A stretch of 36,851 nt of DNA from a virus, in the IMG/VR virus record IMGVR_UViG_3300029267_000784, positions 1-36,851 of that record; one strand, 5' to 3'. Under the pieces are notes generated by a model that worked only from the letters and a program-made list of their open reading frames with translations, did no database searches and was not told where the DNA came from. This document shows positions 1-36,851 of this stretch, piece after piece. Within the stretch, counting starts at the first letter, position 1; each line of letters opens with the position of its first letter. The translations under genes were made by a program, and so were the position numbers.

Positions 1-144
1 CGTGTTATCCTACGCACCGCCCGCTCATATAACTTTTATAAGCCGCTGGTCTTGCCCATGTTCGCTGGAAATTACGCCAATCTTTTGAATACTTCTTATT
101 GCTTCCGTTTTTATATAGCTGTGCAAAAGGATAAAATCCTAATC
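1..144. repeat. Terminal direct repeat, copy 1 (identical to 36708..36851)
   Basis: Compared base by base: cgtgttatcctacgcaccgcccgctcatataac...ggataaaatcctaatc occurs at both window ends. Confidence 0.95.
4..22. repeat. 19-bp direct repeat GTTATCCTACGCACCGCCC (second copy 830..848; 36711..36729 is the terminal-repeat image)
   Basis: Exact match read from the sequence. The two copies bracket the radical SAM gene. Confidence 0.9.
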
Positions 145-808
145 CGTAAACTGTTTTTAATCGTTCTTCTTCCTCCTGCTTATTAAATCCAATTAGCACA
201 TAACATCTTTTTTTATACGAAGGGAAAACCTTTAACTTATCAACGATTCTGCGAAGTGGCTTTATTGATTCCTTCTGATCACACGCAAACCATAATGATT
301 TAATTCTTAACCCTCTCATTTGGTCTATGTCCCAATCGGTCAACAACCGGGCATCAATTCCACCCTTAAATTCAATAGCTCTCTGTGTTCTTAACATATC
401 ATATACCTTCGATCTGTGCTGTTTTGAACACGCAAGAAAATTGTTATCTTGTATTGTGCTCCCCTCTTTAATATCCAATTCTCTAATCCGCCCTTCACGT
501 TTCGGCACAAAACAAAATTTACAGTTAAACGGACAACCTCTGGATGTTATTGTTATGCCATTTCTAACATATATCCCTGGTTTAAATTCTCCGCCTCTAT
601 CGTCATAGGCACACCCACCAATCTTAACCCTGCCGTAATGCTCCCACGCAACCGCTAATCGTTCGGCTCTTTCTTTATCCCAAGTAAATACTGTTGATAT
701 ATGCACCTCGTCGTATTTCGGGGTAAACAAATCGGGATATGAATAATAAGCATCTTTATCAATCGGTGTCATATTCGTCTTCGCTGGGAAAACCCTTGCA
801 ATTCTCAT
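5..808 (-). CDS. Radical SAM superfamily enzyme, 267 aa, substrate unknown
   Basis: C92-x3-C96-x2-C99 cluster motif inside TSRGCPFNCKFCFV. The N-terminal DEVHISTVFTWDKERAERLA..VKIGGCA resembles a cut-down B12-binding-type Rossmann segment. The start ATG overlaps the stop of the upstream mini-ORF (ATGA). Confidence 0.85.
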   Translation of the reverse strand: MRIARVFPAKTNMTPIDKDAYYSYPDLFTPKYDEVHISTVFTWDKERAERLAVAWEHYGRVKIGGCAYDDRGGEFKPGIYVRNGITITSRGCPFNCKFCFVPKREGRIRELDIKEGSTIQDNNFLACSKQHRSKVYDMLRTQRAIEFKGGIDARLLTDWDIDQMRGLRIKSLWFACDQKESIKPLRRIVDKLKVFPSYKKRCYVLIGFNKQEEEERLKTVYGLGFYPFAQLYKNGSNKKYSKDWRNFQRTWARPAAYKSYMSGRCVG

Positions 809-939
809 ATCTCAATCTTAACTCTCCTCGTTATCCTACGCACCGCCCAGAAGAAACCCAGCCCCCAGCCTACCGCTAAACCTATCCCGATGCCTAACCA
901 GTAACTTGATAATGGGCAGATGTGGGGGATGAAGATCAT
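805..939 (-). CDS. 44-aa hydrophobic mini-protein (MIFIPHICPLSSYWLGIGIGLAVGWGLGFFWAVRRITRRVKIEI)
   Basis: Hand-translated; below the 60-aa ORF-track cutoff. It has a Gly-rich hydrophobic helix and ATGA overlaps with both neighbours. Confidence 0.55.
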   Translation of the reverse strand: MIFIPHICPLSSYWLGIGIGLAVGWGLGFFWAVRRITRRVKIEI

Positions 940-3329: not shown

Positions 3330-3500
3330 TTATAATTCTGTTTTTAACCAATCCCTGAATGTCTTTATATTCTGCACACCTTGCGAGTATAAAACCCTGT
3401 AAACATACGCCTGATAATTATCGAGCGCAATATCCAGCGAGATAAAGTGATATTTATTCCGGGGATTTACACAACAAAGTTTTTTAACGTAATATTTCAT
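3330..3500 (-). CDS. 56-aa hypothetical protein (MKYYVKKLCCVNPRNKYHF...)
   Basis: Hand-translated. The start shares one base with the upstream stop (TAATG). Confidence 0.45.
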   Translation of the reverse strand: MKYYVKKLCCVNPRNKYHFISLDIALDNYQAYVYRVLYSQGVQNIKTFRDWLKTEL

Positions 3501-4039
3501 TATTGCCTACTTTTAGAGCAATTAATAATTTCCCTGATATGTTTTGAATACGATTTTGTTAATGCACAGGGGTAATTGCAACACGCACCGCAGTGCCGGT
3601 ATATCGTCGCATTTCTCATATCGCCATACCAGTTTATTTCTTGACGGGTAAATTTGTTATTTGTTGCATCAAAATGCATTACCCGATATGCAAAGTTCTG
3701 GTTTTTTTCAAGCAATTCATATTCTTTTTCAAAGGCGTTTTGGAATATTGTTTGCTCATTTTTTGATAAAGAAGATAACCCCGGATCCACCAGCCTGTTT
3801 TTCCATACCCGTTTAACATTTTGAATTATCCTCTTCCGTCTTTGCTCGTCGATATTATTGACTTTCATCAATCCTAATTCTTCTACAAAACACAGCATGA
3901 ATATTTGACGGGCTTCTTTCTTTGCGCCGCATATATCACACACCCTGTAATCGGAATCCTCGCCGCATATATCACAACCGGCATATCCGCCCGCTTGAAT
4001 ACCGTCTAAAACCTCGTCTGTATTTGTCTGTTGTAACAT
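3500..4039 (-). CDS. 179-aa Cys-rich protein with an N-terminal zinc ribbon (CDICGEDSDYRVCDICG) and C-terminal CGACCNYPC
   Basis: ORF track 3500..4168. I prefer the ATG at 4039 (MLQQTNTDE), which follows the SD GGGAGGT and sits just after the stop of the upstream gene. Confidence 0.6.
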   Translation of the reverse strand: MLQQTNTDEVLDGIQAGGYAGCDICGEDSDYRVCDICGAKKEARQIFMLCFVEELGLMKVNNIDEQRRKRIIQNVKRVWKNRLVDPGLSSLSKNEQTIFQNAFEKEYELLEKNQNFAYRVMHFDATNNKFTRQEINWYGDMRNATIYRHCGACCNYPCALTKSYSKHIREIINCSKSRQ

Positions 4040-4041
4040 TA

Positions 4042-4836
4042 TTACCTCCCTGCGCTTGCCTCGGCCTCTGCCATAGCCCGGATACGTTCGATTTCTGATT
4101 CTTTGTTTTCTTTTACGCCACGTGTTGATAATGGGTTTTGTATCCAATCCTGCCAGTTGTTGAACCATGTAGAGCCCATTTTGATATATTTCTTTTCGAT
4201 TTTATTTTGAATGATATGATTGATGTAATTATTTAATGCAGTATTGATATTTTCGAGGTCTTTATCATTAGCTACAGAAACATTGAAATGCTTTAATGCC
4301 TCTTTGTAACCTTCTTTTCTGGGGTACTTGTCCCATAAAGTTTTAAAACAATCGACATTATATATATTCCCTTCCCTTCCCTTCCTTTCCCTTCCTTTAC
4401 CTTCCCTTCCATTACAGAGCGAGCCCTCGCCGAGTACTCGCCGAGTACTCGGCGAGTCCTGACAATTATTAATGGATTTCTGCAGGTCTTTTAGATTAAA
4501 TCCGTCAATTAAGGGTTGGGAAGGGCGATCTACTTTTTGATGTCGGTTGAAGTTACGTATAAGTAAATAGGGCTTTGTGTCATTATCCCATTTAAACAAT
4601 ACCACAAGCCCTTTTGGCAGTAATTCATCAATCAGTGGTTTGCTGACACATTTAGTAGATGTTGATTTTTCGTAAGGAAAGATTTTTACTTTTAACATCG
4701 GGATGTCATATTCAATGACACCATAGTCATCAGAAAAATTTAACATTCCGATTAATAATTTAGTCGCATTACCGGATAATGTCCCGGTTTTGCTATCACT
4801 CCAAAATTCAGGCTTTATTGTTCTAATCCTTGCCAT
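4042..4836 (-). CDS. Putative replication initiator / replisome organizer
   Basis: The N-terminus MARIRTIKPEFWSD..LLIGMLNFSDDYG and the C-terminal TLWDKYPRKEGYKEALKHF motif recall phage replication-organizer families (from memory, not searched). The central linker carries repeat DNA. Confidence 0.5.
   Translation of the reverse strand: MARIRTIKPEFWSDSKTGTLSGNATKLLIGMLNFSDDYGVIEYDIPMLKVKIFPYEKSTSTKCVSKPLIDELLPKGLVVLFKWDNDTKPYLLIRNFNRHQKVDRPSQPLIDGFNLKDLQKSINNCQDSPSTRRVLGEGSLCNGREGKGRERKGREGNIYNVDCFKTLWDKYPRKEGYKEALKHFNVSVANDKDLENINTALNNYINHIIQNKIEKKYIKMGSTWFNNWQDWIQNPLSTRGVKENKESEIERIRAMAEAEASAGR
4366..4456. repeat. Origin-like block: pyrimidine/purine CCCTTCC repeat tract (4366..4413), then an 11-bp tandem repeat and a perfect 20-bp palindrome (4426..4456)
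   Basis: ttcccttcccttcccttcctttcccttcctttaccttcccttcc, then ctcgccgagta ctcgccgagta ctcggcgag. The 20-mer 4437..4456 is its own reverse complement. Confidence 0.5.
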
Positions 4837-10030: not shown

Positions 10031-10186
10031 ATGCCAGATTTAATAGGGTTTGGAGCAGTCGCTTCTATACTTATAGGAGCAATAATAGTTATCATTGGAA
10101 TTATGTTAATTATTGCACCGCTAAAACTATTCAGCATCGATAAAACATTGAAAGAAATGTTAAAGGAAATTAAAAAACAAAAGTAA
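10031..10186 (+). CDS. 51-aa membrane peptide (MPDLIGFGAVASILIGAIIVIIGIMLIIAPLKLFSIDKTLKEMLKEIKKQK)
   Basis: Hand-translated. SD GGGAGGATGTC lies upstream; the stop TAA shares a base with the integrase ATG. Confidence 0.6.
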   Translation: MPDLIGFGAVASILIGAIIVIIGIMLIIAPLKLFSIDKTLKEMLKEIKKQK

Positions 10187-11220
10187 TGTTTCACCACCGC
10201 CGCCGAGGAAAAAAAGGAATGTATCACGTGTACTGGAGAGAAGATAACCGCCAGCGCACTAAGGCTGTAAGTACGGATATACAAGTTGTAAGAGAATTTG
10301 AGCGTCGCCTTGCCTCCCGCCTGCACCGTAAACAATCAGGGCTTATCATTAAAGATGTATCTTTCCGTGAATTCTGTGATGAATACATCAATATTTATTC
10401 TTTTGCAAACAAACGCCCGTCCAGCGTCAACCGTGATCTCCGCACCATAACACTTTTTAAAAACCGATTCCCTTACATTAAAAAAGTAGAACAGTACGAT
10501 ATAAATATTGTTGAACAGTATAAAGCCCACCGCCTGAAAGAAGGCGTCAAGGAATCATCTATTAATAGAGAATTAAATACACTTACTAATATGCTTAAAT
10601 ATGCCGAAAGAAAAAAATATATTGAGCCGAGCATAGAAAAGGTTAAGCGATTCCAAATAACACAATCGGCTCGGGAAAGGGTGTTGACAGATGAAGAAAT
10701 CAAAAAGCTTATCAAAGAAACGTGGGACCCGTTCAAAACGGCGGTCATGCTCGGGCTTTATGCGGGGCTTCGTAGCGGCGAGGCGTGCAACCTTGAATGG
10801 ACAGACATTGACGCACAGAACCGGATTATTAGGATACGGGATAAAAAAGAATGGAAAGCAAAGAGCAGGCCTTCTGTGCGGAATATCCCTCTCCACCCAG
10901 TCCTTAGTCGATTCCTTAGCAAAAAGTCAAAAAAAGAGGGCTCTCCGTTCGTCTGTGCGTATGCTGACGGATCAAGGCTCACGGAAAAAGTCCTCTGCGC
11001 AATGAACCGCAAATTTAGGCTCAAGCTGGGAATCCCCGGCTATTGTCATCATATCCTGCGGCATACCTTTGTCAGCCGCATGGCCGGGGCCGGGGCTGAT
11101 CTGTATGCTATCTCAAAAATTATAGGGCACAGCAACACCAAAATAACGGAGTCAACCTATACGCACCTTAAAGATAAATACTACCATATTAACATCAACC
11201 GGCTGAAAATCCCCGCTTAA
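10186..11220 (+). CDS. int: Tyrosine integrase (phage integrase family)
   Basis: N-terminal SAM-like/core-binding region, then catalytic LRSGEACNL...HHILRHTFVSRMAGAG...IIGHSNTKITESTYTHL (R..HxxR..H..Y pattern). Confidence 0.9.
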   Translation: MFHHRRRGKKGMYHVYWREDNRQRTKAVSTDIQVVREFERRLASRLHRKQSGLIIKDVSFREFCDEYINIYSFANKRPSSVNRDLRTITLFKNRFPYIKKVEQYDINIVEQYKAHRLKEGVKESSINRELNTLTNMLKYAERKKYIEPSIEKVKRFQITQSARERVLTDEEIKKLIKETWDPFKTAVMLGLYAGLRSGEACNLEWTDIDAQNRIIRIRDKKEWKAKSRPSVRNIPLHPVLSRFLSKKSKKEGSPFVCAYADGSRLTEKVLCAMNRKFRLKLGIPGYCHHILRHTFVSRMAGAGADLYAISKIIGHSNTKITESTYTHLKDKYYHININRLKIPA

Positions 11221-32656: not shown

Positions 32657-33879
32657 ACAAACCTTATATTAAGATCGCCCTCGCTCGCTAATTCAGTGAG
32701 TGCCCACACGCAAGCGTCAAGCCTATTCGGGCTCTTTGTCAAATCCTCAAATTTCGTTGTGCAAAGCTCATCCTCTAATTCGGGAAACTCCTCGACATGA
32801 TATACAAGCCCTTTTTCGTATAATGCTGATATAGGCTCGGCACGGACAGCCTTCCCTCTGGTAGCTGTCACCAGTTTTACATTGATCTGCTGTTTGCCGA
32901 ATTGCGTAATCGTTGATTCAACCATTTCACCGCCGTAGTTTTTCTCTGCCGTAACCGCATCCGCTTGCTTATGGTTATACGCCGCTATAACCTCATCACT
33001 CCATTCCTTCGGTGTACCATGCAGGGTATAATCACCAAGTATGTAATACTTACCTTCCGCATCCCTGCCCGCCGCTATAATACCGATCTCATCCCCTGCT
33101 TTCGAGCCGGACGGGTCTACGCCGATAACAACACGCTGTAATGATTCTGGCGCAGTCCTGTATTTGAACCAGCTCCGCTTCCACAGTGCGCCTTCCTCAT
33201 CGCCGTATTCGCCATGCAGGAATCTTTGCCGTTTGCGCCCTGATAATTGTTCAAGCTGGGGTATGTATGTCGACGCAAGGTTTTCTTTATTATCTTGTGG
33301 ATTAATCTGTATATGCCCGTAATCGTTATCAGGGACAGGCCGGCCGTCCGGGAATACCCGCTCATGAAATATTTTATATCCCCAGTGTTTTTTTGAAGGC
33401 GGGTTGTAATCAAATAAACATCGAGGCGGCACATCTTTTGGAGGGTTTATTCGTGTCAACAATGTCTCGATTGAATCAAAAGAAACTTGACTGGCTTCGT
33501 TTACAAATATACTCGCCCATTCAGTACCAAGTATTTTCTCAACCCGGTCTTTATCATCAAGCCCGCCTATTACCAGCCGGGATTTATTCGGGAATGATGC
33601 ATAATAATCAGAATGGTTTAATTTCACTTTACCTTCAATATTCATTGATCGTAAAGCCTCCGGTAGTGTCTGTTGCCACAACGATATTTTTGCATGACTG
33701 AACCGAAGCCGGACGCTTAAATGCCATGTTAGAGGATATTTCATTGCCCGAATGCATAACACCCGCATTATCAATATCGTTTTCCCTGATCGTGCGCCGC
33801 CTTCCAGTAATGTTTTTTCGCATTTTGCTATTAACCTCGCCGCTTGCTCCTGCCTCTCTGTCTCTCTAAACATCCTCAT
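32653..33879 (-). CDS. terL: Terminase large subunit
   Basis: Walker A GGARSGKT, Walker B-like SIFVNEA, and a C-terminal nuclease-like region with VIGVDPSG. It follows terS. Confidence 0.85.
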   Translation of the reverse strand: MRMFRETERQEQAARLIAKCEKTLLEGGARSGKTILIMRVLCIRAMKYPLTWHLSVRLRFSHAKISLWQQTLPEALRSMNIEGKVKLNHSDYYASFPNKSRLVIGGLDDKDRVEKILGTEWASIFVNEASQVSFDSIETLLTRINPPKDVPPRCLFDYNPPSKKHWGYKIFHERVFPDGRPVPDNDYGHIQINPQDNKENLASTYIPQLEQLSGRKRQRFLHGEYGDEEGALWKRSWFKYRTAPESLQRVVIGVDPSGSKAGDEIGIIAAGRDAEGKYYILGDYTLHGTPKEWSDEVIAAYNHKQADAVTAEKNYGGEMVESTITQFGKQQINVKLVTATRGKAVRAEPISALYEKGLVYHVEEFPELEDELCTTKFEDLTKSPNRLDACVWALTELASEGDLNIRFV

Positions 33880-34390
33880 AGCATTTATTGAAAGATATAT
33901 TTATATTGCCGGAATGTTCAACTTTATCAGTGAATATATTTAAGTGTTTACCAAGCATTTCGAGAGCACGCACTTTGTCAGATAATCTTATTTTTTTCGT
34001 ATATCCTATCTTTTCTCTATCATTCCCTCTGCCGTCATATAATTCCATAACCTCAATCCCTGCCATAGCATGAGCAACATCACTGGGAATATCTGATAAA
34101 TCTCTAAGCATTCCTTGATCTGTAAATGCTCCTCGAATATCCAAGAATGCAATTTTTTTTAATTCGTTTATAACATCATCGGCATCAATAAGAGTACGTT
34201 GTTTTTGAAGTGAAATAAGTTTGTTTATTGCATCTTGAATTTCAGGTTTTTTAAGGTTTTCATCGCCTATAGAACCGGCTGTTTTTTTTGAGTAACCGGC
34301 ACGTATCGCCGCTTGAGTAGCATTTTTGTCAATAAGATATTCGAGTATAAATGATTTTTGTTTTTCGGTAAGTTTATTTTTCTTTTTCAT
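33866..34390 (-). CDS. terS: Terminase small subunit (Terminase_2 / P27-like)
   Basis: KLTEKQKSFILEYLIDKNATQAAIRAGYSKKTA is the family signature. I prefer the ATG at 34390. There is no SD upstream. Confidence 0.8.
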   Translation of the reverse strand: MKKKNKLTEKQKSFILEYLIDKNATQAAIRAGYSKKTAGSIGDENLKKPEIQDAINKLISLQKQRTLIDADDVINELKKIAFLDIRGAFTDQGMLRDLSDIPSDVAHAMAGIEVMELYDGRGNDREKIGYTKKIRLSDKVRALEMLGKHLNIFTDKVEHSGNINISFNKCYEDV

Positions 34391-34397
34391 AGGCAAT

Positions 34398-34530: not shown

Positions 34531-34688
34531 GTATTTTGATTAATAAAGCGGGCAGTATCCCCGCCTTTTAATATACATTCAACTCCTGAATTATCGGCTC
34601 TCCGGCGTACAGAGAATATCAACTCCCCCTCCCCCTGCCGGAATATCTCTTGAGCCCTGCGCAATAGTTCTTTTTCCCAGTCTTTCAT
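34527..34688 (-). CDS. 53-aa second YezD/DUF2292-like mini-protein
   Basis: Hand-translated: MKDWEKELLRRAQEIFRQGEGELIFSVRRRADNSGVECILKGGDTARFINQNT. ATGA overlap with the upstream ORF; its stop lies inside the -35 hexamer. Confidence 0.4.
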   Translation of the reverse strand: MKDWEKELLRRAQEIFRQGEGELIFSVRRRADNSGVECILKGGDTARFINQNT

Positions 34689-36491: not shown

Positions 36492-36689
36492 TTATCGGTC
36501 ATATCTCCCTCCTGTAATCAAATTAGAATATGTCGATATGTATGTATTCGTTCTCGAATCTCTCGGTAATTGATAATCACAATATCCGCAATAAGTACAC
36601 AAATATCCAACACTTCCAGGCCCTATTGCTCTATAAATGCAAGGATGAGCCGCACTGCACGTTTTTTGGTCATTACCACCTATACTCAC
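36492..36689 (-). CDS. 65-aa Cys-rich mini-protein (C11, C17, C31-x2-C34-x2-C37), directly downstream of the radical SAM gene across the circular junction
   Basis: ORF track. A GTG start follows the SD AAAGGGGGAATT, 22 nt after the radical SAM stop (36712..36714, equivalent to 5..7). Confidence 0.6.
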   Translation of the reverse strand: MSIGGNDQKTCSAAHPCIYRAIGPGSVGYLCTYCGYCDYQLPRDSRTNTYISTYSNLITGGRYDR

Positions 36690-36707: not shown

Positions 36708-36851
36708 CGTGTTATCCTACGCACCGCCCGCTCATATAACTTTTATAAGCCGCTGGTCTTGCCCATGTTCGCTGGAAATTACGCCAATCTTTTGAATACT
36801 TCTTATTGCTTCCGTTTTTATATAGCTGTGCAAAAGGATAAAATCCTAATC
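36708..36851. repeat. Terminal direct repeat, copy 2 (identical to 1..144)
   Basis: Exact match to the window start. Confidence 0.95.

Follow-up and report, generated by a model that had tools for sequence, protein, structure and literature searches.

The window analysed here is the whole 36,851-nt stretch of the IMG/VR virus record IMGVR_UViG_3300029267_000784, and all genes are numbered in its coordinates. The subject of this study is a gene on its minus strand at 5..808, an open reading frame (ORF) with an ATG start that encodes a 267-amino-acid (aa) enzyme of the radical S-adenosylmethionine (SAM) type. The two ends of the window match exactly over 144 nt (1..144 = 36708..36851), so that the record represents a phage genome of 36,707 bp that is circular or circularly permuted. 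The assembly break point falls inside the radical SAM gene, whose stop codon at 5..7 is equivalent to 36712..36714, and since the genome is circular, the downstream neighbour of the gene sits at the opposite end of the window. With codon-usage log-odds trained on the long genes of the same phage, the gene scores 0.175, and the best other frame scores -0.24.

Scans against PHROG profiles placed the gene between two functional blocks. A CI-like repressor, RecT, two exonucleases, a replication initiator, and a VRR-NUC nuclease are encoded upstream, and the terminase subunits TerS and TerL, the portal, a protease, and the major head protein are encoded downstream; an integrase gene is located at 10186..11220 on the plus strand. 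A first-pass annotation, made from the sequence alone, had described a temperate phage with the gene at the early/late boundary, where phages usually keep DNA-modifying enzymes. The integrase, the repressor, and the replication and packaging genes bear out the temperate character, and the gene does lie in the DNA-metabolism part of the genome, towards that boundary. That annotation had also stated that the usual partners of phage radical SAM enzymes are missing, and indeed no NrdD, Que, or DpdA-type genes were found among the window ORFs scanned, nor are thymidine-hypermodification partners present. Promoter and terminator scans around the gene returned nothing above chance, and the gene therefore appears to be internal to a long minus-strand operon.

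The feature that identifies the protein is its CX3CX2C motif (C92, C96, and C99), located at 512..535 on the minus strand, where the codons TGT CCG TTT AAC TGT AAA TTT TGT are read directly as C-P-F-N-C-K-F-C within the context ITSRGCPFNCKFCFV. This is the canonical C92-x3-C96-x2-C99 arrangement that had been reported for it. Conservation was assessed across 93 close and 6 distant family sequences, in which G65, D121, and D177 are invariant without exception. At most one exception each was seen for G91, C92, C96, C99, N123, and R216 (every one of the three cysteines is kept in 92/93 close and 6/6 distant homologues) and two for G150, while F41, R90, V101, E105, and G106 are retained in 88-97% of the close set and in 6/6 distant sequences. 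H131 and Y203 are conserved inside the close subfamily. A 'GGE'-like motif is formed by G149-G150 (359..364, minus strand), with G150 present in 91/93 close and 6/6 distant homologues, followed by D or E at position 152 in 86 of the 93 close ones; from general knowledge of radical SAM enzymes, G149-G150-x-D/E152 would bind the amino group of SAM. Judged by its sequence, this is a genuine radical SAM-type protein, one that is expected to bind an iron-sulfur cluster and to cleave SAM.

Two further cysteines are replaceable in the family. The 30 closest relatives all keep C127 and C202, and in about 20% of the 93 family members another residue is found there, mainly A, T, or V. It follows that the protein has neither an auxiliary cluster nor a cysteine pair of the RlmN/Cfr kind, which rules out an RlmN/Cfr-like two-cysteine mechanism and agrees with the earlier description of a short protein lacking a second cysteine cluster. 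No conserved cysteine was found in the N-terminal domain across homologues, and the classical B12 motif DxHxxG is missing, the residues in its place being D33-E-V-H36-I-S; in the sister subfamily introduced below, Y stands at the position of H36. One homologue obtained by profile search, P0206 (550 aa), carries an HNH-containing intein exactly inside the CX3CX2C motif (GCPNK-[intein]-CWFC). Such a position is typical of an indispensable active site; to our knowledge, inteins in radical SAM enzymes are unusual. As functional clues, domain fusions proved uninformative, the longer homologues being accounted for by the intein, by a likely read-through fusion, or by tails without a Pfam match. The read-through case, recognised by eye from the sequence, is a probable fusion with a resolvase-like fragment.

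The protein belongs to a large family. In 5.8 billion proteins, 2,696 homologous clusters (90% identity) were found at E<=1e-3, nearly all of them 260-300 aa, full length, and nameless or labelled 'hypothetical', and a profile search of 1.84 billion 50%-identity representatives gave 2,388 matches, of which 283 were below 1e-30. PHROG 9298, 'radical SAM domain protein', matches the window protein over residues 85-251 (E 8.2e-29), and the two groups align by hhalign over residues 30-259 with 99.9% probability (E 1e-31). On these alignments, the window protein is a member of a family restricted to phages and prophages, in a subfamily that is sister to PHROG 9298. The sister subfamily comprises at least 8,000 clusters, and the two subfamilies together more than 10,000 sequence clusters. 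Members of the sister subfamily include Clostridium phage phiCT453B gp19, 'radical SAM protein' entries of C. difficile and C. botulinum, and proteins of C. tetani phages; others occur in phages of Bacteroides (e.g., LoVEphage QVQ57207), Phocaeicola, Marinitoga, and Methanomassiliicoccales. Like the window protein, the PHROG 9298 proteins are about 270-300 aa long, are encoded between replication genes and the terminase, and possess the invariants R-G-C..C..C-x-V...E-G, D-x-N, G, D, and R. Their identity to the window protein is just 22-28%, their first ~29 residues differ and form an additional beta-alpha Rossmann unit (MKIxxxDxDxxxFPNLALMKIS...), and C127, H131, and C202 are particular to the subfamily of the window protein.

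The hosts named on the genome records are overwhelmingly anaerobes from more than 10 phyla, together with hosts of archaeal viruses. They include Bacillota (e.g., a prophage of Sporomusa ovata DSM 2662, with a homologue of the window protein's subfamily at 48% identity), Bacteroidaceae, Planctomycetota, Omnitrophota, Dehalococcoidia, Aminicenantes, Atribacterota, Synergistaceae, Desulfobacterales, and archaea. The family is basic, with a median isoelectric point (pI) of 9.1 and 83% of members above 8.5, compared with 42% of similar-sized proteins encoded nearby; the pI of the window protein is 9.6.

Comparison with curated collections did not assign the protein to any family. The Pfam Radical_SAM profile (PF04055), for which the window protein itself stays under the threshold, is matched at E<=0.01 by 65/99 family members, with a best value of 1.3e-8. 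In NCBIfam, matches of 11-19 bits were confined to the cluster loop, and most were to B12-binding/radical SAM families, MiaB/RimO, and activases; TIGR04013 ranks first for the window protein, with 18.7 bits where its cut-off is 251. Across the whole family, the best match to a curated B12-binding radical SAM profile is to the ladderane protein (E 4e-6), well under its cut-off. Matches to PDB sequences, with the single protein or the profile as query, are confined to the cluster loop, PADLOC gave no meaningful match, and no characterised family member or paper on the family was found in the literature. The absence of a confident match to any characterised family, as proposed in the first-pass annotation, is therefore borne out by the Pfam, NCBIfam, PADLOC, and PDB searches and by the Foldseek searches described below. 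Its term 'orphan' fits in the sense of uncharacterised and fails in the sense of rare or unique, as thousands of relatives are labelled 'radical SAM protein' or PHROG 9298. The gene as such is no discovery, since the family is already in the databases under a generic label.

An AlphaFold2 model of the window protein, built from 30 homologues, reached a mean predicted local distance difference test score (pLDDT) of 89.3 and a predicted template modelling (TM) score (pTM) of 0.83. In this model, an N-terminal alpha/beta subdomain extends from residue 1 to about residue 70 (599..808, minus strand) and ends at a KIGG motif; it has strands at residues 3-6, 34-38, and 60-64 and a helix at 42-58. From residue 86, strands and helices alternate as in a partial TIM barrel. 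A partial barrel and a GGE-type motif, the features by which the radical SAM superfamily fold is recognised, are thus both present in the predicted structure. In Foldseek searches against the PDB, the best match of this model was AprD4 (6fd2; E 1.1e-3, prob 1.0, query-based TM score [TMq] 0.56), followed by QueE (TMq 0.42, E 0.04, prob 0.94), and the best match in BFVD was a phage 'B12-binding_like domain containing protein'. For the sister subfamily, which has one additional N-terminal beta-alpha unit, an independent model (pLDDT 78) again gave AprD4 as best match (E 1e-4), then BlsE, SuiB, and lysine 2,3-aminomutase. For neither model was a match below E 1e-4 found in the PDB or BFVD.

The first-pass annotation had likened the N-terminal segment to a cut-down B12-type Rossmann domain. 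At the level of the fold this is supported, by AprD4 as best match for two models and by the BFVD match; at the level of the sequence it is not, the B12-binding profile PF02310 being matched by 0/99 and 0/14 members (113 in total, drawn from both subfamilies). Going by the models, a truncated B12-binding-like Rossmann domain is a fair description of what the N-subdomain resembles. No sign of cobalamin binding was seen, for which a domain of this size would be very small. The structural relationship to AprD4, the 1,2-diol dehydratase of apramycin biosynthesis, lies in its two-domain layout, in which a B12-like alpha/beta domain is followed by a partial barrel as in the phage models (TM 0.51-0.56, identity 10-11%, E 1e-3 to 1e-4). 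AprD4 has 450 aa compared with 267 aa for the phage protein, and it acts on an aminoglycoside within a biosynthetic cluster, whereas the phage protein stands alone in a replication module. AprD4 works with the reductase AprD3 and is not known to use cobalamin. The phage protein is best viewed as a minimal form of the B12-like-domain radical SAM architecture, new and restricted to phages.

With COG1032-type proteins and MiaB/RimO, the phage protein has the cluster signature (T/S)RGCxxxCxFCxVPxxxG in common, and the likeness is limited to about 30 residues, with scores of 10-20 bits where the cut-offs are 250-700. At half their length, it lacks PF02310, the UPF0004 auxiliary cluster, TRAM, and the C-terminal domain. 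Assignment as a MiaB/RimO methylthiotransferase was rejected, as the cluster loop alone aligns (E 0.07) and the N-domain has no conserved cysteine. An NrdG-type or other glycyl-radical activase was likewise rejected: the motif lies at residues 92-99, and the scores are 12.8 bits for NrdG2 (cut-off 131) and 11.9 for the pyruvate formate-lyase activating enzyme (PFL-AE) profile (cut-off 174). QueE found no NCBIfam match, its structural match is the one given above, and QueC, QueD, FolE, and DpdA neighbours are absent from all 115 loci compared below. A SPASM/twitch maturase was discarded in view of the missing C-terminal cysteine motif, the lack of a SPASM Pfam match, and the absence of a conserved adjacent precursor gene (0/114 other loci).

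Gene neighbourhoods were compared across 80 viral loci, 64 genome-derived loci, others, and the circularised window, reduced to 115 after removal of redundancy at 90% radical SAM identity; ORFs were called and then clustered with BLASTP. No obligate partner gene was found in the 115 loci, the commonest neighbour cluster occurring in 13/115, and the immediate up- and downstream genes of the enzyme differ nearly everywhere. Recurring neighbours are N6/N4 and C5 DNA methyltransferases, a replisome organiser, SSB, DnaB, a PD-(D/E)XK exonuclease, RecT, VRR-NUC, YopX, proteins resembling phosphoadenosine phosphosulfate (PAPS) reductase, and a three-cysteine DUF5131 (Gp37/Gp68) protein; these identities were read from representative sequences, with Pfam confirmation for the PAPS reductase alone, in one phage. 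Replication or recombination genes occur in 39/115 loci, mostly upstream of the radical SAM gene, and TerL lies downstream in 12/12 loci where it is present. By raw count, a DNA methyltransferase is encoded in 30/115 loci, in 14 of them at most two genes away. Phages phiCT453B, LoVEphage, BKO1-TP3, Dulem virus 39, and Marinitoga camini virus 1 (MCV1) have the gene at the same place according to their deposited annotations.

Two kinds of neighbour are recorded here in their own right. PAPS-reductase-like genes, recorded at L150 1855..2631, at L153 2557..3624, and in 5/51 loci with full flanks, recur near the radical SAM gene in LoVEphage, Dulem virus 39, and several metagenomic loci; in Dulem virus 39, the neighbour annotated as 'reductase' matches Pfam PAPS_reduct (E 2e-15). 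A three-cysteine gene of DUF5131 type (Gp37/Gp68, by sequence) lies within 6 kb in 10/115 loci (L010, L026, L029, L032, L033, L036, L049, L074, L075, and L078), mostly two genes upstream. As the DUF5131 and radical SAM genes co-occur in these ten loci, they are distinct genes, and a relationship between the two proteins was ruled out by hhalign (probability 13%, 20 columns).

In the window itself, the radical SAM gene is closely flanked by two small ORFs. A 44-aa hydrophobic ORF (805..939, minus strand) overlaps its start by 4 nt (ATGA), and a 65-aa ORF with a GTG start and five cysteines, including CxxCxxC (36492..36689, minus strand), begins 22 nt past its stop in the circular genome. The overlap and the gap, both reported in the first-pass annotation, are real. 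As genes, the two ORFs are doubtful on sequence grounds: neither appears among the public gene calls made for this phage, and their codon-usage log-odds are -0.04 (44 aa) and 0.01 (65 aa), compared with 0.08-0.5 for long phage genes. The 65-aa ORF has a weak PHROG match (phrog_29275, E 7e-7), no tblastn match in 50,697 phage records, and no homologue in the 5.8-billion-protein database, and no record of its product was found. The earlier annotation had itself made conservation of this arrangement the check on its significance, with loss of context counting as refutation. A homologue of either ORF was found in 0/114 other loci; the adjacency is not conserved, and the 65-aa ORF is therefore dropped as partner or substrate of the enzyme.

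A likely origin for the tight spacing is suggested by an exact direct repeat of 19 nt (plus strand, GTTATCCTACGCACCGCCC) that brackets the radical SAM gene. Its upstream copy (830..848) lies within the 3' end of the 44-aa ORF, and its downstream copy (4..22 = 36711..36729), read in another frame, provides the final six codons of the radical SAM gene together with its stop. No such exact repeat appeared in shuffled sequences (0/100), and the 19-mer is absent from IMG/VR. The upstream copy lies 25 nt ahead of the ATGA junction and the downstream copy 25 nt ahead of the GTGA at the start of the 65-aa ORF; the 25-nt stretches past each copy are equal in length and about half identical (14/25). The C-terminal tail SGRCVG, which derives from the downstream copy, is not found in homologues. 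If one removes on paper the 826 nt that separate the two copies, the 44-aa ORF ends in ...RRITRKVKGEL and overlaps the start of the 65-aa ORF by GTGA. This arrangement suggests that the radical SAM gene arrived by recombination at a stop/start junction and that the repeat is a recombination or cassette-insertion scar. If so, the close spacing to both small ORFs is incidental and is no evidence of functional partnership.

Two further observations concern the surrounding genome. A GC-rich hairpin followed by a T-run is located at 34551..34565 (minus strand), upstream of the TerS gene (33866..34396); this may be where early and late transcription truly divide, with about 2.3 kb and 6-7 small ORFs separating it from the radical SAM gene upstream. 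The long same-strand ORFs at 3500..4168 and 4042..4836 (both minus strand) share 127 nt. The upstream one is the replication initiator, and the other, of 222 aa, has no PHROG or Pfam match; given the overlap and the lack of a match, its true start is probably further downstream.

Taken together, the lack of a partner gene, the occurrence in both bacterial and archaeal viruses, the mostly anaerobic hosts, the basic character of the family, and the placement among replication, recombination, and methylase genes point to a nucleic-acid-type substrate. The reading tentatively preferred here, which we regard as plausible and somewhat short of probable, is that the protein is a stand-alone AdoMet radical enzyme that acts on a universal substrate of this type, i.e., phage DNA or a (deoxy)nucleotide. 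Its purpose would most likely be a covalent modification or processing step that aids phage DNA replication or escape from host nucleases. In such a mechanism, C92, C96, and C99 would hold a [4Fe-4S] cluster that is reduced by a low-potential donor of the host (flavodoxin or ferredoxin), and SAM, bound with the help of G149-G150-x-D/E152, would be cleaved to a 5'-deoxyadenosyl radical. The radical would then take a hydrogen atom from a substrate held by D121, N123, D177, and R216, joined in the subfamily of the window protein by H131 and Y203. The N-subdomain would be what is left of a B12-binding-like domain, free of cobalamin as in AprD4, and would probably serve as a lid or substrate-binding element; no phage-encoded partner would be required. 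A stronger version, in which the family constitutes a single-gene, oxygen-independent system that adds a novel radical-derived modification to phage DNA or to the deoxynucleotide pool, by which phages of anaerobic bacteria and archaea evade restriction-type defences, is considered unlikely.

The case for the preferred reading is circumstantial, and several points count against it. The window protein itself scores 23.9 bits with PF04055, below the gathering threshold of 29.5, and matches over residues 87-115 alone. DNA methylases are common in the replication module of any phage, and the basic pI and the replication-module placement are weak, non-specific indicators of the substrate; AprD4, the closest structure, acts on a sugar and not on DNA. 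Radical SAM enzymes of two kinds have been reported to act on DNA, spore photoproduct lyase (SPL) and gp53 of Pseudomonas phage M6 (PMC8989533). In SPL, the CX3CX2C motif starts near residue 90, as in the window protein, and M6 gp53 is a phage-encoded radical SAM enzyme that modifies DNA. However, neither family profiles nor Foldseek detected a sequence or fold relationship to either of them: the profile lyase_spl_fam is matched by 1/99 members (E 0.0094), and SPL is not among the top 50 Foldseek matches of either model. M6 gp53 moreover needs genes of the 5-hydroxymethyldeoxyuridine (5-hmdU) pathway (5-HMUDK kinase, aGPT-Pplase, and a pyridoxal phosphate [PLP] enzyme), which are absent in the window phage.

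Other readings draw on parts of the same evidence. The enzyme could be an activase or modifier of a host protein, such as the anaerobic ribonucleotide reductase or pyruvate formate-lyase (PFL), or an anti-defence factor acting on a host protein, tRNA, or the SAM pool. Early and middle phage genes often target host factors, and the anaerobic hosts, the lack of a phage-encoded partner, and the weak cluster-loop matches to NrdG, PFL-AE, and MiaB/RimO families would all suit a host target. The cluster motif, however, lies 91 residues from the N-terminus and is not terminal, the NrdG2 score falls far below its cut-off (12.8 against 131 bits), the UPF0004 auxiliary cluster and TRAM domain of MiaB/RimO are missing, and PADLOC found nothing meaningful; a range spanning bacteria and archaea also makes a conserved host protein harder to picture than DNA or a nucleotide, so that we consider a host target unlikely. 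A nucleotide or sugar dehydratase, AprD4- or viperin-like, that alters the nucleotide pool or makes an incorporated precursor would overlap with the preferred reading. It would account for AprD4, a 1,2-diol dehydratase, being the best structural match of both subfamilies and is consistent with an enzyme that stands alone, and D121, N123, and D177 might suit a substrate rich in hydroxyl or amino groups. The match, at a TM of ~0.5 and ~10% identity, is nevertheless one of overall fold, and no conserved reductase partner occurs, the 'reductase' of Dulem virus 39 being PAPS-reductase-like; as a specific proposal, a dehydratase is thus quite unlikely.

The remaining two readings carry less weight. 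Assignment as an ordinary class B cobalamin-dependent methyltransferase was rejected, since PF02310 is matched by none of the 113 members, the N-domain has 3-4 strands in ~65-70 aa, and no curated cut-off for B12-binding radical SAM proteins is reached. An enzyme of this class with a miniaturised B12 domain, methylating an unactivated carbon, e.g., on DNA, would at least explain why B12-binding/radical SAM families (TIGR04013, PhpK, the ladderane protein, MJ0865, and HpnJ/HpnR) account for nearly every weak match and why AprD4 and the BFVD 'B12-binding_like' protein are the fold matches; anaerobic hosts usually possess corrinoids. Yet these family matches cover the cluster loop alone, far under the cut-offs, H36 is not kept in the sister subfamily, and AprD4 itself is not known to use cobalamin, so that even the miniaturised form appears improbable. 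A peptide maturase that modifies the adjacent 65-aa product or the 44-aa membrane peptide, in the manner of ribosomally synthesised and post-translationally modified peptide (RiPP) pathways or by protein crosslinking, is suggested by the ATGA overlap and 22-nt gap, by the five cysteines of the 65-aa ORF with their CxxCxxC, and by the RiPP maturase SuiB among the weak fold matches of the sister subfamily. It is scarcely credible once the fate of the two ORFs is considered: both are missing from the other 114 loci and from the public gene calls, their codon scores are near zero, the 65-aa ORF is without homologues in phage records or the protein database, the enzyme has no SPASM/twitch auxiliary cluster or peptide-recognition domain, and the 19-nt repeat points to recombination as the source of the adjacency.

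The family also bears on how viral genes are labelled. Viromics papers at times count radical SAM genes of viruses as metabolic genes; in one of them, 'bchE', 'ahbD', and 'other radical SAM proteins' are listed among the auxiliary metabolic genes (PMC13452462). The window protein itself has a weak match to the BchE family (NCBIfam, E 0.05), and because of such BchE-like matches, 'bchE' labels given to viral genes by automated pipelines call for caution. Proteins of this family could be mislabelled as BchE in this way, which is not to imply that the genes of that paper (PMC13452462) belong to it.

Radical SAM enzymes perform chemistry that is beyond the reach of other enzymes, and two kinds have been reported on DNA (PMC8989533). 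The present family, of more than 10,000 clusters, occurs solely in phages and prophages whose hosts are anaerobes, such as the prophages of C. difficile, C. botulinum, and C. tetani and the phages of gut Bacteroides, and it is experimentally tractable because homologues exist in cultivable Clostridium, Bacteroides, and Sporomusa systems. If the target were instead a host factor, the enzyme would represent a new takeover or counter-defence mechanism. If the preferred reading, a modification of DNA or nucleotides, is correct, it would constitute new anti-restriction chemistry and would bear on the sequencing, engineering, and therapeutic use of phages of anaerobes. As a single-gene DNA system, it would join SPL and M6 gp53 as only the third kind of radical SAM enzyme known to act on DNA, and no earlier one does so without accessory pathway genes.

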